Positions 1 through 11,030 of a stretch of 11,030 nucleotides of DNA are shown piece after piece (within the stretch, counting starts at the first letter, position 1; the number at the start of each line of letters is the position of its first letter). Origin of the DNA: an uncultured Deinococcales bacterium (lineage in GTDB: Bacteria > Deinococcota > Deinococci > Deinococcales > JAAFIG01); assembly GCA_964247135.1 (NCBI GenBank), contig CAXTTL010000165.1, positions 1 to 11,030 on the forward strand, read 5' to 3'. Made by a program: the position numbers and the translations under genes. Under the pieces are notes generated by a model. The model made no database searches. It saw only the letters and a list, made by a program, of their open reading frames with translations, and was not told the origin of the DNA.

Positions 1-678
1 ATGGGCTTGTTGATGGGATTATTGAACGGCTATCTGGTTTACCGCTTCAAAGTCCCATCACTCATTGTCACCATCGGTACGCAGTACATGTTCTCTGGTT
101 TTCTGAAAGCCTTCATCGGCAGCCGTCACATCATGGACATCCCAAAAGGTTTGGATGCGGCTGGCACAACCGCACTGATTCAAGCCACCACCTCTGATGG
201 TGCTCGAGTTTCAATCTCGATTCAAGTTTTGGTCTTGATTCTGGCAATTGTCGTGACTTGGTTTATTCTCAACCGCACCCTGATGGGACGCGCGGTTTAT
301 GCCGTCGGCGGCAGCATCCCAATTGCCGAACGCCTCGGGTTTAGCGTGCGCACCGTGATCTTGTTTGTCTTTGGTTACGCGGGTCTGCTGGCGGGTTTGG
401 GCGGGATTCTGCACGGCGCCCTCAACCGTCAAGCCAACCCGTCGGATTTGGTCGGTTCGGAACTCAATGTGATTGCCGCCGTGGTGCTCGGTGGTGCGAG
501 AATTACGGGCGGTACGGGAACGGTGCTTGGAACAATGCTTGGCGTGATCTTGATTGAACTCTTGACCAACAACCTCATCCTGATGGGCGTGCCTTCGACC
601 TGGCAAAAAGTCGTGATTGGCACAATTATTCTGCTTGCCAGCGCCGCCTTCGCACGTCGCGGCAAGACTTTGAGTTAA
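1..678 (+). CDS. Sugar-type ABC transporter permease (RbsC-like, BPD_transp_2 family), C-terminal part; probably begins upstream of the window
   Basis: Hydrophobic multi-TM ORF with family motifs 'VPSLIVTIGT', 'GRAVYAVGG' and 'ELNVIAAVVLGGARITGGTGTVLGTMLG'. At 225 aa it is shorter than a typical permease of this family and starts in a mid-protein TM motif, so the ATG at 1 is probably internal. Stop TAA at 676-678. Confidence 0.9.
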   Translation: MGLLMGLLNGYLVYRFKVPSLIVTIGTQYMFSGFLKAFIGSRHIMDIPKGLDAAGTTALIQATTSDGARVSISIQVLVLILAIVVTWFILNRTLMGRAVYAVGGSIPIAERLGFSVRTVILFVFGYAGLLAGLGGILHGALNRQANPSDLVGSELNVIAAVVLGGARITGGTGTVLGTMLGVILIELLTNNLILMGVPSTWQKVVIGTIILLASAAFARRGKTLS

Positions 679-706
679 ACTCGAGCAAAGCAGGTCGGGG
701 GACGCC

Positions 707-1957
707 GTGGATTACTTTATTTTGAACGCCCAAACCGTGATCGATTACGTGCGTTCAAAACCCGAAGCGAGTGATTTGATTGATACCAGCGCCAAACTCG
801 AGGCTGAAGAGTTGAGCGACGGCAACCTCAATTTTGTTTTTCGCGTGTTTGAAGCTGGCAATCCCCAAAAAAGTATTTTGGTCAAACAGGGCGTGCCGTA
901 CTTGCGCGTGGCGGGCGAATCGTGGCGGCTCTCCCCTGCCCGCGCGGGATTTGAAGCTCGCGCCCTAAACCTCGAGCATCGGTTCGCGCCAGGGTTTGTA
1001 CCTGTGCCGTACTGGTTTGACGAAACCATGTTTGTCAATGCGATGGAAGATTTACGCGCTCATGAGGTCATGCGAAAACCGATGGTCAACCGCGTGAGGT
1101 TTAAAAACTTGGGCGCAACGATTGGTAATTTTCTGGCAAGAACCTTGTTTGGCACGTCCGATTTTGGCATGGAAGCCAAGCAGAAAAAAATCTTGATGAC
1201 CCAGTTCGCCAACACCGAACTGTGCGAGATCACCGAAGATTTGATTTTCACCGAACCGTTCGAGGCTGTGCTGCTCGAGCGAAAAGTCAATCGCAATCAA
1301 TTTGACCCTGGGATCAAACCTGCGCTCGAGAGACTGCAAGCCGATCTCGAGCTGAAGGAAAAAGTTGCCAAACTGAAATACCATTTTATGACTTGTTCGC
1401 AAGCGTTATTGCACGGCGATTTGCACACGGGTTCGATCATGGCGAGCCAGCCCGATGAAAACCACCACGCCGAGATTCGCGTAATCGACCCAGAATTTGC
1501 CTTCTTTGGACCAATCGGTTTTGATGTTGGTTTGTTCGTGGCAAATTTGTTTTTGAACGCCAGTGCCCAGCACGGTCACGCACCCGATCAAAACTCGAGG
1601 GATGCCTACCGCAGTTATTTGTTCCAGCAATACCGTTTTTGTTGGGAATCTTTCGAGCTTGGCTTCAGGGCGCAACTCGAGCATTCCAACAGCATTTCTT
1701 GGCGTTCAAAAGACTTTCAAAACGATTTGATGCTCGAGGTTTTGCGTGACACGGCAGGTTTTGCGGGTTGTGAGATGATTCGGCGCAGCGTTGGATTCGC
1801 GCATGTGTTTGACGTGGACAGCATTGCGGACGAGCAAAAACGCGTTAAGGTACTCGAGATGAATTTAGAAATTGGAACGAGACTCATTAAAAACCATCAT
1901 CACCTCTCGGGTTTTGCCACACTTGAGAACATCGTGCGGGAAGTGATTGAAGCGTGA
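707..1957 (+). CDS. mtnK: S-methyl-5-thioribose kinase (may also act on 5-deoxyribose)
   Basis: Motifs 'DGNLNFVFRV', 'KQGVPYLRVAGESW', 'ITEDLIFTEPF', 'LLHGDLHTGSI', 'IDPEFAFFGPIGFDVG' and 'EMIRR'. GTG start preceded by GGGGGA (697-702). Adjacent to mtnA. Confidence 0.93.
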   Translation: MDYFILNAQTVIDYVRSKPEASDLIDTSAKLEAEELSDGNLNFVFRVFEAGNPQKSILVKQGVPYLRVAGESWRLSPARAGFEARALNLEHRFAPGFVPVPYWFDETMFVNAMEDLRAHEVMRKPMVNRVRFKNLGATIGNFLARTLFGTSDFGMEAKQKKILMTQFANTELCEITEDLIFTEPFEAVLLERKVNRNQFDPGIKPALERLQADLELKEKVAKLKYHFMTCSQALLHGDLHTGSIMASQPDENHHAEIRVIDPEFAFFGPIGFDVGLFVANLFLNASAQHGHAPDQNSRDAYRSYLFQQYRFCWESFELGFRAQLEHSNSISWRSKDFQNDLMLEVLRDTAGFAGCEMIRRSVGFAHVFDVDSIADEQKRVKVLEMNLEIGTRLIKNHHHLSGFATLENIVREVIEA

Positions 1958-3012
1958 CCAAAGCCCAACCAACCGTGGTTTTTGAAAATCAAACCGTGTT
2001 TTTGCTCGACCAGACTCTGTTGCCGCTCGAACGCGTGATGATCACAATTCCAGACGCGCCAACCATGTGGGAAGCCATTAAAGTGTTGCGGGTTCGCGGT
2101 GCGCCAGCGATTGGTGTGGCGGCGGCTTTTGGTTTGTGGCTCGGCGTTAAGAATCTTCCTGAGAACACAACTCGAGCCGTATTTCTCGAGAAACTGATTG
2201 AGACTCGAGATTATTTGGCAACATCCAGACCAACCGCCGTCAACTTGTTTTGGGCGTTGGACCGCGTGATGCAACGCCTTCAAGCCACAAGTTTAAAAAC
2301 CTCGAGCGACCTGAAAAATGCGGTTCTCGCGGAAGCGCTCGCCATCAAAACCTCCGAAGAACGCACCTCGGACTTGATTGGTCAACACGGCGTACCGCTG
2401 CTGGCTGGCGTCTCGAGCATCCTGACGCACTGCAACGCGGGCAGCCTGGCGACCACGGGCATTGGCACGGCACTCGCGCCGATTTACGCGGCGGCGGCGT
2501 TGGGACAGGTCATTCACGTGTATGCCGACGAAACCCGTCCGCTTTTGCAAGGCGCACGTCTGACGGCATGGGAATTGCAACAGGCGGGTTTGCCTGTGAC
2601 CGTGATTACCGACAACATGGCAGCAGGAGTCATGCGCGACAAGAACATCGGTGCGGTGATCGTCGGTTGTGATCGCGTCGCCGCCAACGGTGATTTCGCC
2701 AATAAGATCGGCACGTATGGTGTGGCGATTTTGGCGAAAGAACACAACATTCCGTTTTATGTCGCCGCGCCGTTCAGCACCATCGATTTTGCCACGCCCG
2801 ACGGCTCGAGCATCGAAATTGAACAACGTCACGCCGATGAAGTCTCGAGTTTTGGTTTGCGCCGTACCGCGCCCGAAGGTGTGAACATTTTCAATCCAGC
2901 GTTCGATGTCACGCCCGCCAAATACGTGACCGCCTTCATTACCGACCGTGGCGTGATTCGTGCGCCGTACCTTGAGAATTTGAAAGCAACCAATGCAAAA
3001 CCGTTGGAATGA
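1954..3012 (+). CDS. mtnA: S-methyl-5-thioribose-1-phosphate isomerase
   Basis: Motifs 'LDQTLLP', 'VRGAPAIG', 'SRPTAVNL', 'THCNAGSLAT', 'DETRPLLQGARLTAWEL', 'ANKIGTY' and 'NPAFDVTP'. GTGA start/stop overlap with mtnK suggests translational coupling. Confidence 0.95.
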   Translation: MTKAQPTVVFENQTVFLLDQTLLPLERVMITIPDAPTMWEAIKVLRVRGAPAIGVAAAFGLWLGVKNLPENTTRAVFLEKLIETRDYLATSRPTAVNLFWALDRVMQRLQATSLKTSSDLKNAVLAEALAIKTSEERTSDLIGQHGVPLLAGVSSILTHCNAGSLATTGIGTALAPIYAAAALGQVIHVYADETRPLLQGARLTAWELQQAGLPVTVITDNMAAGVMRDKNIGAVIVGCDRVAANGDFANKIGTYGVAILAKEHNIPFYVAAPFSTIDFATPDGSSIEIEQRHADEVSSFGLRRTAPEGVNIFNPAFDVTPAKYVTAFITDRGVIRAPYLENLKATNAKPLE

Positions 3013-4948
3013 AACCCACGCCGCGCAATGCCAAAACGAACTCGAGCTTCGGGCGTACTCGTCGCGCTTGTTGGGTGAGGACTCGAGTTTGGTGCTGGCA
3101 GGTGGCGGCAATACTTCGGTCAAACTGAGCGCTGAAAATACTTTCGGTGAAACGCTCGAGGTGCTTTGGGTGAAAGGCAGCGGAGGTTCACTCAAAACCA
3201 TCACACCCGCAGGTTTTGCGCCCGTCAATCTTCAATACCTGCAAAAACTCGCAAACCTCGAGACACTTTCCGACACCGACATGATGCGCGAATTTCGTTT
3301 GGCACTGCTCGAGCCTGACGCGCCGTTTCCCAGCGTTGAAACGATTTTGCACGCGATCCTGCCACACAAATGGGTCGATCACACGCACGCCGATGCGCTC
3401 GTGACGATCATGAACACACCTTCTGGTGAGACTCGCGTGCGCGAGATTTACGGAAATTCGGTGATTGTTGTGCCGTATGTGATGCCAGGTTTTGGGCTGG
3501 CAAAGGCTTGCAAAACAGCTTACGAACAACAAAACTCGAGCGAAACAATCGGTATGATTTTACTGAATCACGGTTTGTTTACTTGGGGCGACACGGCAAA
3601 AGAAAGTTATGACCACATGATCGACTTGGTTTCTCGAGCCGAATATTATCTCGAGCAGCACAACGCTTGGGAGATTCCAAATTTGCAACTCGAGCCAAAA
3701 TCTTCAACGCGAATTCAAATCGCGCAACTTCGACATGACGTTTCAAGTGCAGCAAACCGCCCAATGATCGTGAGTAAACTCGAGCAAGATTACGGGTTTT
3801 CAAAGCGCGAAAATCTCGAGGATGTGGCATTGCGCGGCGTGGCAACCGTCGATCATGCTTCTTGGATCAAGCCCAAACCGATGCTTGGGCGCGATGTTCA
3901 AGCTTTTGTTGAAGCCTACAAAAACTATTTTGAAACGCATTCCAAAGCTCGAGAAATAATGCTTGATCCCGCACCTCGAGTCGTGATTGACCCCGAGCTT
4001 GGCGTCTTGACGGCTGGAAAAACCTTGAAAGACGCTCAAACTTCAGGCGCGATTTTTGAGCACACGATTCAGATGATCGAACGTGCCGAAAAACTCGAGC
4101 GCTGGCAACCACTAAGAGAAGAGAAACTGTTTGAATTTGAATACTGGGCGTTGCAGCAAACCAAATTCAAGCGTTCCTCGAGTTTGCCAGAATTTGCGGG
4201 TGAGGTGATGCTTGTGACGGGTGCAGCCTCGGGAATCGGCAAAGCCTGCGCCGAAATCTTTATGGCTCAAGGGGCGGCGGTGGTTGGGCTGGACTTGAAC
4301 CCAGCCGTGAAAACTGTTTTTAGTAATCCTGAATTTTGGGGCATTCAATGTGATGTCACCCTCGAGCATTCCCTGCAAGACGCCCTCGAGCAAACCGTAC
4401 AGCGTTTTGGCGGGTTGGACATGCTGGTGCTGAATGCTGGAATTTTCCCACCCAGCCAGCCAATTGCCAACCTCGATCTCGAGACTTGGCAACGCACCAT
4501 GCGCGTGAACCTGGACGCGAACCTGAGCTTGATGCGCGAGGCATACCCGCTGCTCAAACTCGCGCCGAATGGTGGGCGCGTGGTCGTGATCGCCTCCAAG
4601 AACGTGCCAGCCCCAGGACCAGGGGCGGCAGCCTACAGTGCCTCCAAAGCCGCGCTGACCCAACTTGCCAGGGTTGCTGCCCTCGAGTGGGGAGAAGACG
4701 GCATACGGGTCAACGTGCTGCATCCGAACGCGGTGTTTGACACTGGAATCTGGACGGAGGAGATTCTCGAGAAACGCGCCAAAAGTTACGGGTTGAGCGT
4801 GCAAGAATACAAAACCAACAACATTCTAAAAACCGAAGTCTCGAGTTTTGATGTTGCGAGACTTGCCGCAAGCATGTGCGGGAGTGCGTTTGCGAAAACC
4901 ACGGGTTCTCAAGTGCCGATAGATGGCGGGAATGATCGGGTGATTTAG
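2993..4948 (+). CDS. Bifunctional class II aldolase / short-chain dehydrogenase (rhamnulose-1-P aldolase-SDR fusion family, YuxG/RhaEW-like)
   Basis: N-terminal aldolase motifs 'GGGNTSVK', 'KGSG', 'PSVETILH' and metal-ligand His in 'DHTHAD' and 'NHG'. C-terminal SDR motifs 'TGAASGIG', 'NAG' and 'YSASK'; the Asp in 'GLDLN' suggests NAD(H) preference. Overlaps the mtnA end by 20 nt. Confidence 0.9.
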   Translation: MQNRWNETHAAQCQNELELRAYSSRLLGEDSSLVLAGGGNTSVKLSAENTFGETLEVLWVKGSGGSLKTITPAGFAPVNLQYLQKLANLETLSDTDMMREFRLALLEPDAPFPSVETILHAILPHKWVDHTHADALVTIMNTPSGETRVREIYGNSVIVVPYVMPGFGLAKACKTAYEQQNSSETIGMILLNHGLFTWGDTAKESYDHMIDLVSRAEYYLEQHNAWEIPNLQLEPKSSTRIQIAQLRHDVSSAANRPMIVSKLEQDYGFSKRENLEDVALRGVATVDHASWIKPKPMLGRDVQAFVEAYKNYFETHSKAREIMLDPAPRVVIDPELGVLTAGKTLKDAQTSGAIFEHTIQMIERAEKLERWQPLREEKLFEFEYWALQQTKFKRSSSLPEFAGEVMLVTGAASGIGKACAEIFMAQGAAVVGLDLNPAVKTVFSNPEFWGIQCDVTLEHSLQDALEQTVQRFGGLDMLVLNAGIFPPSQPIANLDLETWQRTMRVNLDANLSLMREAYPLLKLAPNGGRVVVIASKNVPAPGPGAAAYSASKAALTQLARVAALEWGEDGIRVNVLHPNAVFDTGIWTEEILEKRAKSYGLSVQEYKTNNILKTEVSSFDVARLAASMCGSAFAKTTGSQVPIDGGNDRVI

Positions 4949-4988
4949 GATTTCAAATCGCGCCAGAACCAAAATTTGTCCTCTTGTG

Positions 4989-5438
4989 TCAACCAGTATG
5001 TTTTACAAATATCACCGAATAATAGCCAAGTACAATTGACATAACCAATCCCATTGGTAAAGAAATGAAAAATACTAAAATCACTCCATAATCAAAGCCC
5101 TCCACAAATGTTTGCTGGAACTGCAAAGGTAAGTTCCAAATCAACATTCCTAAAAGTATGCCCCAAATAAAAATTCCTCGAATAGATTTTTTAAACCAGT
5201 CTTGAAAATTTTGTGGCGGAAATGATCCATCAAAAAACATCCAGAATCCACCGATTAGACCAAATGGAACGAACCAACACAGATAAAGAATCCTGTCTTC
5301 ACGGCTGAGATGTAACAACGAATTCCAACTAAAATTAATAGAAGATGTCCAAACAGTAAAAAAAAGAATCGGCATCAAAGCCAGCATTAAACCCAAAATG
5401 ACTGCTGCAATGTAATGCTTACCTGGCAGGATTTTCAC
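4989..5438 (-). CDS. Hypothetical integral membrane protein (about 4 TM helices), low GC
   Basis: 149-aa ORF with four hydrophobic stretches. GTG start with GGAG a few nt upstream on the - strand. Sampled 60-nt lines are 32-33% GC. No recognisable family. Confidence 0.7.
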   Translation of the reverse strand: MKILPGKHYIAAVILGLMLALMPILFFTVWTSSINFSWNSLLHLSREDRILYLCWFVPFGLIGGFWMFFDGSFPPQNFQDWFKKSIRGIFIWGILLGMLIWNLPLQFQQTFVEGFDYGVILVFFISLPMGLVMSIVLGYYSVIFVKHTG

Positions 5439-5476
5439 AAATCTCCGATCATTTTTCGTATATCAATGTCATGTTT

Positions 5477-5539
5477 TCATTTCTTAAACCGTAAATCCTC
5501 CCAAGGTACGCCATCCACAAACACTTCTGGCTCGAGCAT
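5477..5539 (-). pseudogene. Diverged remnant of the 3' end of an aldo-keto reductase gene (reads MLEPEVFVDGVPWEDLRFKK*)
   Basis: 5477-5536 aligns without gaps to 6763-6822 at 48/60 nt. 16 of 19 aa match the AKR C-terminus LEPERFANGVPWEDLRFKK*, and the stop codon is in the same position. Confidence 0.85.
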
Positions 5540-5599
5540 ATTGGCACATCCAAGATTCTACACGCCCATTCCATTTAAGGTATTTTGAAACCTCGAGTT

Positions 5600-5617
5600 A
5601 TCTCATACACATGAGAT
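5600..5617. promoter_or_regulatory. Inverted repeat ATCTCAT-N4-ATGAGAT, candidate operator in a divergent intergenic region
   Basis: Perfect 7-bp arms read directly from the sequence. Function is inferred only from position. Confidence 0.3.
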
Positions 5618-5740
5618 CAATATAAAGCGTACTTAATCCTTTTAGCGTGCTTGACGGCATCCAAACAATGCTTGGCGTTCGTATATTCCCATGAAGCGCT
5701 TTTCAACCGACTGTGGCCACAGCCGACTTCTGGAGGTCTT

Positions 5741-6613
5741 ATGAACATCAATCGCAATATGAACCGTCGCCAGGCTTTACAAAATCTAGGATTGGTTGGC
5801 GCTGGGGCGGCACTCGCCGCCTGCGCAATGCCTGTAGTCGCCGAAATGCCAAACATTGACGTTGACGTGCTTAACTTTGCCCTAAACCTCGAGTATCTTG
5901 AGGCTGAGTTTTACCTTCAAGCCGCGTTTGGGCGGAGCTTGAGCGCTGCCGATTCGGGCGGAGGTCCTGCGCCGATTGGTGGTCGCAAGGTGACTTTCGC
6001 CAGCGATGCCGTGCGGCAGTACGCCGAAGAGATTGCCATTGACGAAGAGAACCACGTGAAATTCTTGCGCTCGGCACTCGGTACGGCTGCCGTTCCCCGT
6101 CCGCAGCTCGACATTGGACCAGCGTTCGCGGCTGCCGCGAATGCTGCATTTGCCACAACTTTAAATCCTGCGTTTGATCCTTACGCCAACGATTTGTTCT
6201 TTTTGCACGGCGCTTTCATTTTCGAGGACGTGGGTGTCACGGCTTACAAGGGCGCGGCGCGTTTGATCACCAACAAGGATTACCTCGAGGCTGCCGCCGG
6301 TATTTTGGCGGTCGAGGCGTATCACGCTGGGGAAATTCGCACGCAGTTGTACGCGCAAAAAGATGTCGTGGTGAAGGCTTACGGCGTCACCGTTGAAACG
6401 ATTGTCAAAAAGATTTCTGACCTTCGCGCCTCGGTTGGCGGCGGCAAAGATCAGGGCATCAATGACGGTGGCAAGAGCAATATTGTGGTGACCGATGCCA
6501 ACTCGATTGCCTTCAGCCGCAGCACCGATGAAGTTTTGAGAATCGTAACTTTGGGAGGTGCTGGCAACAAAGGTGGTTTCTTTCCTGAAGGCTTGAAGGG
6601 CGTCATCAAGTAA
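5741..6613 (+). CDS. Ferritin-like domain protein (Ferritin_2 family; desiccation-related pcC13-62 / DR_B0118-like) with twin-arginine and lipobox signal
   Basis: Start moved from 5651 to the ATG at 5741, which follows GGAGG (5732-5736). Signal sequence 'MNRRQALQNLGLVGAGAALAAC'. Di-metal four-helix motifs 'LNFALNLEYLEAEFY', 'DEENHV', 'FEDVGVTAYKGAA' and 'LAVEAYHAG'. Confidence 0.88.
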   Translation: MNINRNMNRRQALQNLGLVGAGAALAACAMPVVAEMPNIDVDVLNFALNLEYLEAEFYLQAAFGRSLSAADSGGGPAPIGGRKVTFASDAVRQYAEEIAIDEENHVKFLRSALGTAAVPRPQLDIGPAFAAAANAAFATTLNPAFDPYANDLFFLHGAFIFEDVGVTAYKGAARLITNKDYLEAAAGILAVEAYHAGEIRTQLYAQKDVVVKAYGVTVETIVKKISDLRASVGGGKDQGINDGGKSNIVVTDANSIAFSRSTDEVLRIVTLGGAGNKGGFFPEGLKGVIK

Positions 6614-6671
6614 ACCCACTGTAAAGAAAAAGACAATGAAATTGGGCTTCCATCCGAATTTCAAAAACCAA

Positions 6672-6707
6672 ATTCCAGCGAAACGGCTTAAACCGTTTCG
6701 CTGGAAT
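6672..6707. terminator. Perfect 15-bp stem-loop between convergent genes; probable terminator, possibly bidirectional
   Basis: ATTCCAGCGAAACGG-cttaaa-CCGTTTCGCTGGAAT. A T-rich tail follows on the - strand; there is no clear U-tract on the + strand. Confidence 0.75.
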
Positions 6708-6762
6708 CCATTCGATGTCGGGTCACACTTTGGCGTCGGAGAATCCCGATGGCTTGAGCGAC

Positions 6763-7836
6763 TTATTTTTTAAACCGTAAATCTTCCCAGGGCACACCGT
6801 TTGCAAACCGTTCTGGCTCGAGGGTTTTGGCGCGTGGGTCTTCGGCTTGGTCGAGTTGCAAGACCATCCATTTTGGATACGGCGTTCCAGGGTCGGACGC
6901 GGCGTTTAACTGCGCAAAATCCTGGCTCGAGAGTTTCAAATCAATGGCTTTAATGTTGTCCTCGAGTTGCTCATGGGTGCGTGCGGCAATAATCACGCTC
7001 GAGATATTTGGTTGCCTGACCGTCCAAGCCAGTGCCACCCGAGCCACACTGACATTGTGACGGGCTGCAACTTCGCGCAAGGCTGCCAGGATGGGTGCGC
7101 CGCGATCCCAGTCGAAGGGCACAAACTGTCCAGCCTCAGCAAACCGAGTGCCATTGCCTGCATCGCTCGAGCGCGAATATTTGCCACTCAAATAACCACC
7201 AGCCAGCGGACTCCAGACCAGAATGCCCATGCCCGAGTGTTTGGCGAACGACATCCAATCATGCTCAAGGTCACGCCCGACCATTGAGTAATACAGTTGC
7301 GCGGTGACAAAAGGCTCGAGGTTCAGGCTTTTTTGGGTTGCCAATGCGGTGGCGGCTTGCCAAGCGTGGTAATTGCTGAGTCCCACATGGCGCACCATGC
7401 CGCGCCTCACCAGGTCGTCCAGGGTTCGCAAGGTTTCCTCGAGCGGCGTGTACGAATCCCAACCGTGAACTTGATACAGGTCAAGGTAATCGGTTTGCAG
7501 GCGTTTCAGACTGCTTTCCACACCGCGCATGATGTTGACCCTGGTTGCGCCAGAACGGTTGATGTTGTCGCTCATCGGCAAACGGAATTTGGTGGCGAGC
7601 ACGATCTCCTCGCGGATGCCTTTGAGCGCCACGCCAAGTTGCGTCTCAGATTCGCCCCTCGAGTAGACGTCGGCGGTGTCAATCAAATTGATGCCGTGCT
7701 CGAGCGCGAATTTCACCATGTTGGTGGTGGCGGTTTGGTCAAGTTTGCCCATGTTCATGGCTTGTCCAAACTGCATGGTGCCCAGTGAGAGTGCGCTGAC
7801 GACCAAACCAGAATTGCCGAGCTTGCGGTATTCCAT
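6763..7836 (-). CDS. Aldo-keto reductase (Tas / aryl-alcohol dehydrogenase-like)
   Basis: Motifs 'MEYRKLGNSGLVVSALSLGTM', catalytic tetrad in 'DTADVY', 'ATKF' and 'YQVH', plus 'GLSN' and 'WSPLAGGYLSGKY'. RBS GAGGTG at 7842-7847 on the - strand. Confidence 0.93.
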   Translation of the reverse strand: MEYRKLGNSGLVVSALSLGTMQFGQAMNMGKLDQTATTNMVKFALEHGINLIDTADVYSRGESETQLGVALKGIREEIVLATKFRLPMSDNINRSGATRVNIMRGVESSLKRLQTDYLDLYQVHGWDSYTPLEETLRTLDDLVRRGMVRHVGLSNYHAWQAATALATQKSLNLEPFVTAQLYYSMVGRDLEHDWMSFAKHSGMGILVWSPLAGGYLSGKYSRSSDAGNGTRFAEAGQFVPFDWDRGAPILAALREVAARHNVSVARVALAWTVRQPNISSVIIAARTHEQLEDNIKAIDLKLSSQDFAQLNAASDPGTPYPKWMVLQLDQAEDPRAKTLEPERFANGVPWEDLRFKK

Positions 7837-7843
7837 GCGTTCA

Positions 7844-7874
7844 CCTCAAGGTTGATTTGACCTTTAGGCTAGCA
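7844..7874 (-). promoter_or_regulatory. Candidate extended -10 (TGcTAGCCT) with an overlapping inverted-repeat operator upstream of the AKR gene
   Basis: The - strand reads TGC-TAGCCT at 7874-7866. The + strand has CCTCAAGGT-N7-ACCTTTAGG at 7844-7868 (8/9 symmetric), covering the -10 edge and the RBS. Confidence 0.4.
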
Positions 7875-7893
7875 TGAAAAAATAACCCGAGCT

Positions 7894-8865
7894 TTAATTT
7901 GATTTTGGTGCCAAAACCCGAGGCGACAAACTGAGTAATGCCTCAACAATGCTCGGGTCAAATTGCGATCCCGCGCCCGTCGCCAAGCGGCTTCGCGCCT
8001 CTTTAGGCTCGAGCGCCAAACGGTACGGTCGGTCTGTGGTCATGGCATCAAAGGCATCCACCACGCCAATAATGCGCCCACCGAGCGGAATATGCTCGGC
8101 TTTTAAGTTGTCTGGGTATCCGTTGCCGTCCCAACGTTCATGGTGCGACCGGACCATCGGCGCGATCAAGTCGCCGTGACGCAAGGTGCTGACAATTTCC
8201 GCGCCGTGGCTGGGGTGTTGTTTGATGTACGCCCAATCGCCTGGCGTCAGTTCGGTGGTTTTGCGCAAGATTTCGACGGGCACCGCAATTTTACCGATGT
8301 CATGCAGTAAACCCGCAGCACGAACCGCAATCAAATCGAGGTTTGAGAGTCCCAAACGGTGCGCCACATGACCGCTGAGCGTCCGAAGCCGTTCGATGTG
8401 TCCGCTGGTGTACGGGTCGTGCTTTTCAACGGTACGGGCGACCGCGCCCAGAACGCCTGTGGCATCCTCGAGGTGACGGCTGGCTTGATGCTGCTGGGTC
8501 AAACGCCGCACCCGAGTCCCGAGCACCACGCTGTCCACGGGCAAGTACATGACGTTATCAACCCCCACGTCGTAAGCTTCCGCCTCGAGGTGAGAGTATT
8601 TTTCGTGCAAGAGCATGACGATTGGCACTTCAGAATTCGGGTCGGATTTGATCGACCTGCACAGCGCAATACTCTCGTAATTGCGCCCTTCAATAATCAG
8701 GGCATCAATCCGTCCTTCGCCGCAAAAACCGACCACCGCCGCGCCAGGAAACATCGGGGCAACCCGCAAGCCCATTTGTTGCAGCATAAAGCGGTGCTCA
8801 TCCAGTTTGGGGTACTCGTTCGAGACGAGCAAAACCGTGTACGCCTCGAGTGAAATGTCGTTCAT
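7894..8865 (-). CDS. HD-GYP cyclic-dinucleotide phosphodiesterase with a degenerate N-terminal receiver domain
   Basis: Start moved from 9042 to the ATG at 8865 (MNDISLE...), which has AAGGTGG just upstream; the dropped 59 codons are AT-rich and look intergenic. Motifs 'HDPYTSGH', 'LLHDIGK', 'HPSHG', 'HHERWDGNGYP' and 'DAFDAMTTDRPYR'. Confidence 0.88.
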   Translation of the reverse strand: MNDISLEAYTVLLVSNEYPKLDEHRFMLQQMGLRVAPMFPGAAVVGFCGEGRIDALIIEGRNYESIALCRSIKSDPNSEVPIVMLLHEKYSHLEAEAYDVGVDNVMYLPVDSVVLGTRVRRLTQQHQASRHLEDATGVLGAVARTVEKHDPYTSGHIERLRTLSGHVAHRLGLSNLDLIAVRAAGLLHDIGKIAVPVEILRKTTELTPGDWAYIKQHPSHGAEIVSTLRHGDLIAPMVRSHHERWDGNGYPDNLKAEHIPLGGRIIGVVDAFDAMTTDRPYRLALEPKEARSRLATGAGSQFDPSIVEALLSLSPRVLAPKSN

Positions 8866-9070
8866 GAACCACCTTGTTTTTTTAAATTTGAAAAGTAAAA
8901 TCTCGAGCCTCAATATACATTTTTGCAGAATCTGATGTTGTGGTTTTTGACCATTGTGAGGGCATATTTTAACGTATTGATACTCGAGTATTGTAAAGTC
9001 TCGATCAATAACGTTGCCATTAAAATCCGTGTTCTTTGGCACCTCCCGAATGCCAAATACAGGTTATTTC

Positions 9071-9097
9071 AAACTGACGTCAGTTTAACGTCAGTTT
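9071..9097. repeat. Perfect 16-bp palindrome AAACTGACGTCAGTTT plus a 10-bp direct repeat ACGTCAGTTT with 11-bp period
   Basis: Palindrome at 9071-9086. Repeat copies at 9077-9086 and 9088-9097. Overlaps the regulator's stop codon at 9080-9082. Confidence 0.6.
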
Positions 9098-11030
9098 CAG
9101 TTCTTCACGCAATTGCTTTAAGGTCGGTGGCAACGATTCGCCGTACCCGCCAAACGTCCGTTCGACTTCGGCAACCGTGCGCCGTCCAGCCAATGCCCCC
9201 TCGAGTTCGGTGGTGGCACGCACCAGCAACTCGTTCAATCCAAGATCGAGCGGTTCGACTTTGCGCAAGCGCTCGGTCATTTTGCGGCAGGCGTCAAAAT
9301 CGCCACGTTCAAACAAGTCTTGCACCACTTTCAATCCAGTACGCACCATAAGCCATTCCACGTTAGACCGAACCTCCTCAACCCATTCGGCGCTCGAGTG
9401 TCGCAGGAAGGCTCCAGCGTACAGGTCGAGTGCAAGGTTGAGATCATTGTCCACGGGAACGCTTAGGTATCGCATAATCTCACTATAATCCCAAGCCAAA
9501 CCAGCAGTGCCAGGTTCGAGCGAATAGGTGCGCGTCACGCGGTCATAAGTGATTTCCAAACCGTTGGAAGACAGCGGCAACTGGTGTTTGATCTGATGAA
9601 AATTATTGCGTGCCGCTTTTGGTTCGGAATCTTCAAAAACTTCGGTCAAGATTTTCTCGAGCGTGCTCATCGGGTGAAGCATTAAGTACGAAAGCAACTC
9701 GAGGGTTTTGGCAGTCGAAGTCAAGTGAACTGGTTTACCGTTCGCCAGCAACATCGGTTGCCCAAAGGCACGAATTCGGAATTCTTTGACCGATGGGCGA
9801 TGCTCGAGCGGGAGAATAACTTGTTCTGCCTCAAAGTTTGATTCCAGGATTGGTTTAAGTGCATGTAAACCATACGGCGTGGCAATGTCTGCCAGCGCTT
9901 GAATGTCGCTTATTAAGCGCAACTCGAGCATTAAGAAAGCGTTCCCGCCAAGCGAGTTGGCAATGTCTGACACATGTTCGAGCGAAATTGATGCGGATTC
10001 GGAGTCGTTGTTTTTAAGATGCCAGACCGCAAAGTGAAGGTGTGTCCAGGCAAGCTCTCGAGCCAGTTCCTGTTCTTTATAATATTTTTCTGCATTTGCA
10101 AGACATTCGTTTGCTTTCTCGAGTTGACCGAGGTTTGTCCAAAGAATACCCGCAGTCAAATTTTGGAATGCAAGACATTTATCATTGGCACTGGTATTTT
10201 CAGATCGTTTGAGCGCTGCGCGAGCTTCATTAAAGTTTCGAGTCCCAATATGGACTTTGCAAATCCCAATTTTAGCAAGGCAATCATTTTCATTAAAACT
10301 ATTTTTCTCACTGATTTCAATAGATTGACTAAAATATAATAGCGCAGTTTGCCATTCTTTTTGTGTTATTTTGTATATTCCTTTAGAGTATAAATAAATC
10401 GAATTGAGGAAAGGGTTATCTGCACTTTGGAAATCTTGATCAAAAAGCATACTTTCAACACTTGCGAAGTCACCATTGTAAATACAGACAAATGTTCGTG
10501 TCATATGAACATAAGCTCGGAATGCAGGATTTGTACTTAATAATGCTCGGTCTAAAACTTCTTTCGCTTTTCGATCATTTCCAAGTAAGTGATACATATA
10601 ACCAAGTGATTGATCTATCATAGGAATCAAACTTTTAGCATCTTGACACAATTCAGCTTCAAGACGCGCTTCCGAATATGCTTCTATAGCAGCTTTGAAG
10701 TGGCTTCGGGTCGCATGTAAATCGCCGCGTTCGCGCAATGCTCGAACCCAATCGTCAGGACTTAAGGGCGCGTCAAATGCAGCTTCGAGATACGCTTCGC
10801 AATCTTCGAGCAAATTTAACAAACGACAAATTGAAGCCAACCCAATCAACGCGCCAGTCTCACCACGTCGTTTTGATCTGGTAAACATAGTACGAGCGTC
10901 TTCCAAAGCTCCCATGTTCCAAAGACAAACGGCTGCCCAACGATCATCCTTTGCAGAAGGCATTGGAAGTTGTTGGTAGAATTCCCAACCTTCCTTATAA
11001 CACGCATTTTGGGCGAGTCGTTGGATTGAG
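9080..11030 (-). CDS. TPR-repeat transcriptional regulator with C-terminal winged-helix / BTAD (SARP-like) module; 5' end probably outside the window
   Basis: The frame stays open from 10963 to the window edge (SIQRLAQNACYKEGWEFYQQLPM...). The N-terminal part shows TPR-like helical repeats. The C-terminal motifs 'IRAFGQPMLLANG', 'ELLSYL', 'ALDLYAGAFL...AEWVEEVR' and 'VEPLD' resemble SARP wHTH-BTAD. Confidence 0.8.
   Translation of the reverse strand, partial: SIQRLAQNACYKEGWEFYQQLPMPSAKDDRWAAVCLWNMGALEDARTMFTRSKRRGETGALIGLASICRLLNLLEDCEAYLEAAFDAPLSPDDWVRALRERGDLHATRSHFKAAIEAYSEARLEAELCQDAKSLIPMIDQSLGYMYHLLGNDRKAKEVLDRALLSTNPAFRAYVHMTRTFVCIYNGDFASVESMLFDQDFQSADNPFLNSIYLYSKGIYKITQKEWQTALLYFSQSIEISEKNSFNENDCLAKIGICKVHIGTRNFNEARAALKRSENTSANDKCLAFQNLTAGILWTNLGQLEKANECLANAEKYYKEQELARELAWTHLHFAVWHLKNNDSESASISLEHVSDIANSLGGNAFLMLELRLISDIQALADIATPYGLHALKPILESNFEAEQVILPLEHRPSVKEFRIRAFGQPMLLANGKPVHLTSTAKTLELLSYLMLHPMSTLEKILTEVFEDSEPKAARNNFHQIKHQLPLSSNGLEITYDRVTRTYSLEPGTAGLAWDYSEIMRYLSVPVDNDLNLALDLYAGAFLRHSSAEWVEEVRSNVEWLMVRTGLKVVQDLFERGDFDACRKMTERLRKVEPLDLGLNELLVRATTELEGALAGRRTVAEVERTFGGYGESLPPTLKQLREELKLTLN

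Follow-up and report, generated by a model that had tools for sequence, protein, structure and literature searches.

All cells that use S-adenosylmethionine (SAM) need to dispose of methylthioadenosine and 5'-deoxyadenosine, and the question raised by the locus described here is which enzyme cleaves the sugar phosphate made from them, and what becomes of the resulting aldehyde, when the genes of the kinase MtnK and the isomerase MtnA are followed by a gene for a class II aldolase fused to a short-chain dehydrogenase/reductase (SDR). The window, that is the whole stretch of DNA analysed, is the complete contig C165 (CAXTTL010000165.1; 11,030 nucleotides, nt) of the draft genome of an uncultured Deinococcales bacterium (5.09 Mb, 386 contigs, 84% complete). 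From sequence comparison, its mtnK-mtnA-fusion operon probably encodes (with a probability of about 0.7) a variant of the dihydroxyacetone phosphate (DHAP) shunt, in which methylthioribulose-1-phosphate or 5-deoxyribulose-1-phosphate would be cleaved to DHAP and the aldehyde would be oxidised or reduced on the same polypeptide.

The known DHAP shunt, as described in the relevant reports (PMC6079011, PMC10986504, PMC12632272, PMC13474568), comprises MtnN plus MtnK, or MtnP, followed by MtnA and Ald2, or DrdK-DrdI-DrdA, and is found in Rhodospirillum rubrum, extraintestinal Escherichia coli and Bacillus thuringiensis; the mtnK-mtnA-ald2-transporter operon of E. coli allows growth on exogenous 5-deoxyribose (PMC12632272, PMC10986504). 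Reduction to the alcohol is the known fate of the aldehyde in R. rubrum and E. coli, and the enzyme for the 2-(methylthio)acetaldehyde step is given as 'unknown' in one report (PMC13474568). As to cyanobacteria with only mtnP and mtnA, it has been stated that they 'must employ another pathway ... or use another aldolase' (bioRxiv 10.1101/2020.12.30.424818). Aldolase-SDR fusions, for their part, are characterised mainly in rhamnose catabolism, an assertion of the initial annotation of the window that agrees with PMC3870299; according to the same paper, RhaEW is an L-rhamnulose-1-phosphate aldolase fused to an L-lactaldehyde dehydrogenase, oxidises lactaldehyde with nicotinamide adenine dinucleotide (NAD+), has no activity with NADH, and forms neither DHAP nor lactate when NAD+ is omitted.

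The operon

The genes on which the argument rests are the following.

1..678, + strand: 3' part of a sugar-type ATP-binding cassette (ABC) permease gene, cut by the contig end (Pfam BPD_transp_2, 101 bits)
707..1957, + strand: mtnK, 416 residues (TIGR01767, 446.5 bits, cut-off 275, aligned over 3-410)
1954..3012, + strand: mtnA, 352 residues, GTG start (TIGR00512, 418.7 bits, cut-off 279; NF004326, 447.9 bits, cut-off 271)
2993..4948, + strand: class II aldolase/SDR fusion, 651 residues (NF006196, 971.5 bits, cut-off 831)

The permease gene is the last transporter gene ahead of mtnK, from which its stop codon is separated by 28 nt. The overlaps originally reported between the three following genes are exact, as read from the table of open reading frames (ORFs) and at the junctions themselves: 4 nt for mtnK/mtnA (1954-1957) and 20 nt for mtnA/fusion (2993-3012). 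Both recur in another genome of the same genus (G005), while 113 nt lie between mtnA and the fusion gene in a genome of another genus (G008). The 20-nt overlap needs the ATG at 2993 and would be abolished by the 618-residue form proposed by an alternative gene caller; the long start is taken as correct because homologs at 88% identity are 651 residues long, because NF006196 aligns from residue 1 and because the N-terminal 33 residues are conserved, with W5, L17, R20, Y22, S24 and L26-G28 unchanged across 17 sequences, the most distant of which is 58% identical. Overlaps of this kind are common in operons and unremarkable per se; it is the gene content that counts. The window MtnK is 38% and 37% identical, respectively, to the kinases of the canonical clusters of E. 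coli and B. thuringiensis, and MtnB, MtnC and MtnD have no match among the nine ORFs of the window, in keeping with the initial reading of the locus. The best NCBIfam matches of the permease are ribose/monosaccharide permeases, all below cut-off. A complete operon is found in G005, in the order permease, binding protein, ATPase, permease, mtnK, mtnA, fusion; the copy of the window genome is broken by assembly gaps, its binding protein being on contig C70 and its ATPase on contig C386.

Domains, catalytic residues and structure of the fusion protein

The fusion is composed of three parts.

3056..3652, + strand: class II (metal-dependent) aldolase domain, residues 22-220 (Pfam Aldolase_II, 74.5 bits, cut-off 22.2)
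3653..4204, + strand: conserved middle region, residues about 221-404, of no named family and without a Pfam match
4205..4930, + strand: classical SDR domain, residues 405-646 (Pfam adh_short, 154.7 bits, spanning residues 405-588; adh_short_C2, 155.5 bits)

The aldolase glutamate and the three metal-binding histidines (E116, H130, H132 and H193) are kept in all 80 members of the clade to which the protein belongs and are paired by BLASTP with the motifs PSSE, HTH and NHG of the aldolase from the B. thuringiensis cluster; we take them to be equivalent to the corresponding numbered residues of E. coli FucA. In the SDR domain, the TGAASGIG motif (T409-G416), D434, N481-A482-G483, S535, Y548 and K552 are each kept in 79 or 80 of the 80 sequences. 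An aspartate after the second strand marks a preference for NAD(H) in SDRs, and the invariant D434 at this position suggests that the domain is of the NAD(H) type. The middle region, which is shared with the RhaEW-type paralog of the same genome, is well folded in the AlphaFold2 model of the fusion (mean predicted local distance difference test, pLDDT, 82.1; predicted template-modelling score, pTM, 0.82) and carries invariant residues, among them G282, T285, D287, H288, K293 and P296.

The closest solved structure found by Foldseek is 3m4r (42% identity over 220 residues, template-modelling score 0.94 normalised to the target), a structural-genomics entry of unassigned function that represents the N-terminal aldolase domain of a homologous fusion from Thermoplasma acidophilum; it covers this domain alone, with no ligand and no full-length structure. 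A phmmer search against all PDB sequences returned no chain of the FucA, RhaD, MtnB or DrdA type at E <= 10.

A subfamily distinct from RhaEW

NCBIfam divides the aldolase-SDR fusions into about eleven models, only one of which, NF006196, is passed by the window protein (residues 1-651 on model positions 1-657); this model (PRK08324.2-4, bifunctional aldolase/short-chain dehydrogenase) has no substrate assigned to it by NCBI. The RhaEW model TIGR02632 is failed, with 417.3 bits against a cut-off of 567.75. The same genome encodes on contig C99 a RhaEW-type fusion that scores 886.5 bits with TIGR02632 and also passes NF006190; it is built of the same three parts as the window protein, to which it is 34% identical. 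The gene directly after this paralog is rhamnulokinase-like (TIGR02627, 499.9 bits, just below the cut-off of 527.95), and a rhamnulokinase follows the RhaEW-like paralogs in four of four cases in the bacterial family of the window. A check of the genome for rhamnose genes, proposed with the initial annotation, thus places the rhamnulokinase-like gene beside the separate RhaEW paralog and not beside the window fusion; Pfam and NCBIfam scans of the window found neither a rhamnose isomerase nor a rhamnulokinase gene. The genome therefore holds its own control, one fusion standing in a rhamnose operon and the other in an mtnK-mtnA operon.

A tree of 85 rows (quick method, LG+G4; 69 of the 79 external loci described below, the ten with ORFs shorter than 600 residues being left out) separates 80 clade rows from four RhaEW-like paralogs by starred branches with lengths of 1.99 and 0.37. 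Its outgroup consists of the family's own RhaEW-like paralogs, not of the characterised YuxG or Caur_2283. A tree including Ald2 had also been envisaged: the split from RhaEW by a long starred branch came out as anticipated, but Ald2/DrdA had to be omitted because the aldolases of E. coli and B. thuringiensis (plasmid collection) are too dissimilar to be aligned meaningfully. This same dissimilarity bears out the earlier statement that screens keyed on ald2 would miss the variant, since BLASTP of Ald2/DrdA against the aldolase domain gives E = 4.0 (E. coli) and 0.04 (B. thuringiensis). The predicted mislabelling as a rhamnose gene has indeed occurred, relatives being named 'rhamnose utilization protein RhaD' by JGI.

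With the characterised RhaEW enzymes (YuxG of Bacillus subtilis and Caur_2283 of Chloroflexus aurantiacus) the window fusion shares the order aldolase, middle region, SDR, the catalytic residues and, probably, the logic of a cleavage followed by immediate conversion of the aldehyde; unlike them, it falls into a separate subfamily, by model score and by branch length. Clade-specific substitutions include N506 and N510 in the SDR domain and the replacement of three aldolase-domain arginines by L, A and M (positions 89, 110 and 164); loss of the arginines, established against four closely related RhaEW-like rows, would suit a substrate with a less polar tail.

Genomic context in other lineages

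Relatives of the fusion were collected by a pattern scan with one genome per species; at least 596 were found, and the best 80 (38-58% identity) were analysed, one of which (L077, 38% identity) was dropped to leave 79 external loci. Neighbours were counted by tblastn with defined queries, because ORF calling and neighbour clustering are noisy in GC-rich loci, where antisense ORFs are called. On this count mtnA lies within 3 kb of the fusion gene in 30 of the 79 loci, from at least five phyla, in 26 of these 30 within 200 nt and in 29 on the same strand, downstream in 24 cases and upstream in six; of the 47 loci in which 3 kb or more of sequence is available on each side, 19 have mtnA. The linkage is found in 23/23 Betaproteobacteria, 2/5 Verrucomicrobiota, 1/1 Planctomycetota and 1/10 Cyanobacteriota, as well as in unclassified Pseudomonadota. 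Additional partners among the 79 loci are mtnP (in five), apt (in six) and a NupC-type nucleoside transporter (in three, all of the Thiodiazotropha type, just upstream of the fusion gene); Nitrosospira sp. Nl5 has the fusion gene followed by those of a methylthioadenosine phosphorylase (NF006492, 523 bits, cut-off 437) and then by apt and mtnA. A rhamnulokinase was found near an NF006196-clade fusion in none of the 79 external and none of the ten family loci, so that the co-localisation which the initial annotation proposed to score is seen for mtnA, in the 30 loci given above, and the rhamnose clusters that would have contradicted it did not appear; mtnK was found in none of the 79.

The loci lacking mtnA offer no other common partner: what is conserved around their fusion genes is lineage-level synteny only (FabA, LysR, SfsA, TANGO2/GNAT), and they gave no match for rhaI, rhaB or dhaK and merely weak ones, at 23-26% identity, for araB (L041) and araD (L036, L053). 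Five genomes with a stand-alone fusion gene were checked and all five have mtnA elsewhere, which means little because mtnA is very common. Among 121 cyanobacterial genomes at least 90% complete, the fusion is present in ten, mtnB in 16, both in two and mtnA in 115.

A TANGO2-family gene (PF05742, 160 bits) was observed about 0.1-0.7 kb upstream of fusion-mtnA, on the same strand, in 15 loci of betaproteobacterial type (L015, L023, L027, L031, L037, L042, L043, L046, L050, L058, L061, L063, L064, L066 and L073); a GNAT acetyltransferase gene on the opposite strand stands between TANGO2 and the fusion in seven loci, six of them among those 15.

The rest of the pathway in the genome and its relatives

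The nucleosidase MtnN is encoded on contig C95 (TIGR01704, 96.8 bits, cut-off 73.8). Profile searches of the 84%-complete genome, which the initial annotation had called for in the case of mtnB, mtnC and mtnD, found none of MtnB, MtnC, MtnD and MTAP over cut-off: the best match of the MtnB model TIGR03328, and its sole one at E <= 0.001, is AraD (65.1 bits against 137), the MtnC model TIGR01691 has no match and the MtnD model PF03079 reaches 21.2 bits with a cut-off of 27. LsrF likewise stays below its cut-off (best 128.6 bits, 297 required). Exactly three Aldolase_II domains are present, namely those of the fusion, of the RhaEW paralog and of the AraD epimerase encoded beside ribulokinase, the last being the sole stand-alone enzyme of this kind; with no salvage enzymes found, the fusion is therefore the only plausible taker of the MtnA product in the assembled 84%.

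None of 41 relatives surveyed has MtnB over cut-off. Among them, a fusion ortholog, with at least 60% identity, is present in 11 of 19 genomes of the family, belonging to four genera, and these 11 include nine with mtnK and ten with mtnA; in the eight genomes of a fifth genus the fusion, mtnK and mtnA were all not found. The order transporter-mtnK-mtnA-fusion is common to G005, G004 and G008, and G007 has fusion-transporter-mtnK-mtnA.

Variants of the mtnK-mtnA neighbourhood were noted in two further genomes. In G011 (L125, G011:C1:4616000-4634000, minus strand, 4145-16292) a DeoC-like aldolase gene precedes transporter-mtnK-mtnA, after which come a psicose-epimerase-like TIM-barrel protein, a lyxose/mannose-isomerase-like cupin and the dihydroxyacetone kinase pair dhaKL; the fusion lies 2.6 Mb away. 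In G021, from another family of the order, a block on the minus strand (L129, G021:C1:351000-364000, about 3046-10480) encodes an ABC transporter, MtnA, MtnK, an Rpe-like epimerase, an LsrF-type thiolase (NF006081, 350 bits, cut-off 297) and a Zn-dependent dehydrogenase, a possible route from 5-deoxyribulose-1-phosphate to DHAP and acetyl-coenzyme A (acetyl-CoA); after a second mtnK-mtnA pair of the same genome (L130) come a split transketolase and a RuBisCO-like protein.

The proposed pathway

In the pathway that we infer, 5-methylthioribose and/or 5-deoxyribose would be imported by the ABC transporter, or released by MtnN from methylthioadenosine and 5'-deoxyadenosine; MtnK would phosphorylate the sugar at C1, MtnA would isomerise the product to the ribulose-1-phosphate, and the N-terminal aldolase domain would cleave the latter into DHAP and 2-(methylthio)acetaldehyde or acetaldehyde, a reactive compound which the C-terminal NAD(H)-type SDR domain would convert immediately. 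The comparative evidence supports the earlier proposal that the fusion was recruited to SAM by-product metabolism; the substrates, the products, the action of the SDR on the aldehyde, its redox direction and import by the transporter are predicted. Of the two directions, NAD+-dependent oxidation to 2-(methylthio)acetate or acetate appears slightly more likely, because RhaEW, the only characterised relative, oxidises with NAD+ and because the invariant aspartate suggests NAD(H); formation of the acid would drive the reversible cleavage towards its products. Almost as likely is a reduction like that of the known shunt, with 2-methylthioethanol or ethanol as the product. An oxidative DHAP shunt in the full sense, with the aldehyde passed directly to the SDR domain and DHAP, NADH and 2-(methylthio)acetate or acetate as the products, is put forward tentatively, as a possible rather than a probable scheme.

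As in the known DHAP shunt, a kinase and an isomerase of the same equivalog families are encoded, in one operon comparable to that of E. coli, together with a transporter and a class II aldolase domain; the feeding nucleosidase MtnN is encoded elsewhere in the genome, and DHAP and a C2 aldehyde would be expected as products. It differs in that the aldolase is neither stand-alone nor an ortholog of Ald2/DrdA, but is fused to the middle region and the SDR, so that the aldehyde step would be built in; moreover, the transporter is an ABC system and not the single permease of E. coli. In full-text searches of the literature no report turned up that connects an aldolase-SDR fusion with mtnK, mtnA or mtnP; new here are the form with MtnK and an ABC transporter (the uptake form), its occurrence in this lineage, and the presence of a RhaEW paralog in the same genome.

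Alternative explanations and points of doubt

The kinase and the isomerase could also be thought to serve a ribose or nucleoside route, in which ribose would be converted via ribose-1-phosphate to ribulose-1-phosphate and the fusion would yield DHAP and glycolaldehyde, the latter oxidised by the SDR. The best sub-threshold matches of the transporter are indeed ribose/monosaccharide systems, NupC nucleoside transporters stand beside the fusion in three loci, NCBIfam includes a haloarchaeal ribulose-1-phosphate aldolase model (NF053831), a title on ribose metabolism by MtnK/MtnA of B. subtilis appears in the reference list of PMC6302742, and the characterised relative RhaW oxidises an alpha-hydroxy aldehyde, lactaldehyde, as glycolaldehyde likewise is; yet MtnK and MtnA are far over their equivalog cut-offs, the recurrent methylthioadenosine phosphorylase and apt partners point to methylthioadenosine or 5'-deoxyadenosine, and the loss of the three arginines, judged against the four RhaEW-like rows, suits a less polar tail, which makes the route unlikely. 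The order of the two catalytic steps might instead be reversed, the SDR oxidising the C4 hydroxyl to a 2,4-diketone which the N-terminal domain or another enzyme would split into DHAP and an acid or thioester. That RhaEW gives no DHAP without NAD+ (PMC3870299) is compatible with a thermodynamic pull as well as with an oxidation that has to come first, and the G021 block, in which mtnA and mtnK are accompanied by an LsrF-type thiolase and a Zn-dependent dehydrogenase, resembles a split version of such a route. An LsrF over cut-off is missing from the matches in the window genome (128.6 bits against 297), and all 80 sequences retain the full set of one glutamate and three histidines of ordinary class II aldolases. 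No class II aldolase is known to cleave beta-diketones, and an oxidation preceding cleavage appears improbable.

Two other readings are very improbable. The fusion might, like RhaEW, be an enzyme of deoxyhexose catabolism with rhamnulose-1-phosphate or fuculose-1-phosphate as its substrate, its adjacency to mtnK-mtnA being due to chance or co-regulation: it does share its three-part architecture with the RhaEW paralog (34% identity), JGI calls its relatives RhaD, and in one genome (G039) mtnA neighbours a true rhamnose operon. Against this are its 417 bits with a RhaEW cut-off of 567.75, the RhaEW already present in the genome beside a rhamnulokinase, the distribution of rhamnulokinase (0/79 external and 0/10 family loci, as opposed to 4/4 RhaEW-like paralogs) and the 20-nt overlap with mtnA. 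Equally hard to sustain is the view of the N-terminal domain as an MtnB-like dehydratase, with the SDR processing the diketone in a new methionine-salvage route that would return the sulfur to methionine; MtnB does belong to the same Pfam family as the aldolase domain, and a genome in which none of MtnB, MtnC and MtnD exceeds its cut-off could salvage methionine only by a novel route, but the nearest characterised relative is an aldolase, the fusion gave no match in the whole-genome search with TIGR03328, and the genome yielded no enzymes for the later steps of salvage.

The DHAP-shunt variant itself has to be set against several observations that weigh on the other side or are neutral. No mtn gene is found near the fusion in 49 of the 79 external loci, and most of the 30 mtnA-positive ones are betaproteobacterial, that is, from related genomes which are not independent. 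The 121 cyanobacterial genomes do not show a complementary pattern of fusion and mtnB, about 90 of them having mtnA with neither, a distribution that favours neither side. Within the window's own family, the fusion lies far from mtnK-mtnA, amid unrelated genes, in G010 and G011, and G006 (74% complete) has the fusion while mtnK and mtnA were not found. The likeness of the transporter to ribose, rhamnose and autoinducer-2 (AI-2) systems is sub-threshold only, and its substrate cannot be read from the sequence; furthermore, 'not found' does not amount to absent, because the draft genome is 84% complete. In G039, mtnA (over cut-off) heads a rhaI-rhaB-RhaEW rhamnose operon, so that adjacency to mtnA is not exclusive to the NF006196 subfamily; this pairing could be a trace of the recruitment of a RhaEW-type enzyme to 5-deoxypentoses, or chance. 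The block in question (L123, G039:C6:86000-104000, minus strand, 6052-13836) encodes a DeoR-type regulator, MtnA, a rhamnose isomerase of the Gram-positive type, a rhamnulokinase and RhaEW (NF006189, 968 bits). Finally, the dhaKL pair adjoins the transporter-mtnK-mtnA operon in three genera, divergently in the window genome, G005 and G008 and downstream on the same strand in G011; the model leaves it unexplained, and a pathway already yielding DHAP would not need a dihydroxyacetone kinase. Its positions are as follows.

C70:2805-4417, + strand: dhaKL of the window genome
L127:777-2395: dhaKL of G005
L128:10723-12335: dhaKL of G008
L125:4145-5795: dhaKL of G011

Other features of the window

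Downstream of the fusion gene the window contains the following genes.

4989-5438, - strand: ORF of 149 residues without family match, converging on the fusion gene
5651-6613, + strand: Ferritin_2-domain protein, 320 residues
within 6763-10963, - strand: aldo-keto reductase (357 residues), HD-GYP-type response regulator (382 residues) and TPR protein (627 residues)

The 149-residue ORF is 89% conserved in G005, and a Ferritin_2 protein is also encoded near the stand-alone fusion of G011 (L110:11627-12514). An aldo-keto reductase neighbours the fusion in one Opitutaceae locus as well (L074; 33% identity, opposite strand), which is probably a coincidence. A scan of positions 4700-5800 for promoters and terminators gave nothing beyond the expectation from shuffled sequences. 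The palindrome CTCGAG occurs 66 times in the window (1-11030), compared with 2.0 expected from shuffles, the largest shuffle value being 6; the sites are spread over the window and 37 of them fall within mtnK-mtnA-fusion, a density suggesting that the operon is a long-standing resident and was not recently acquired.

Significance

If the DHAP-shunt variant is real, the fusion would be, for the organisms that have it, both the missing aldehyde-handling enzyme of the shunt and the other aldolase of cyanobacteria; its reach in the latter is ten of the 121 sampled genomes, and it is at most a minority answer to their missing aldolase. Should the oxidative form hold, the cleavage would be made irreversible and energy-yielding, and a family with members in at least 596 species-level genomes would produce a sulfur metabolite that none of the papers searched connects with methylthioadenosine; the literature searches found no paper containing both methylthioadenosine and methylthioacetate or methylthioacetic acid. 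The occurrence of both paralogs in one genome, each in its own operon, makes a direct comparison of their substrate specificities possible, and the pair could serve to map the residues by which a rhamnose enzyme is turned into a 5-deoxypentose enzyme. The assignment, if true, would also correct the annotation of hundreds of genomes, in which the NCBI name is generic and the JGI label refers to rhamnose.

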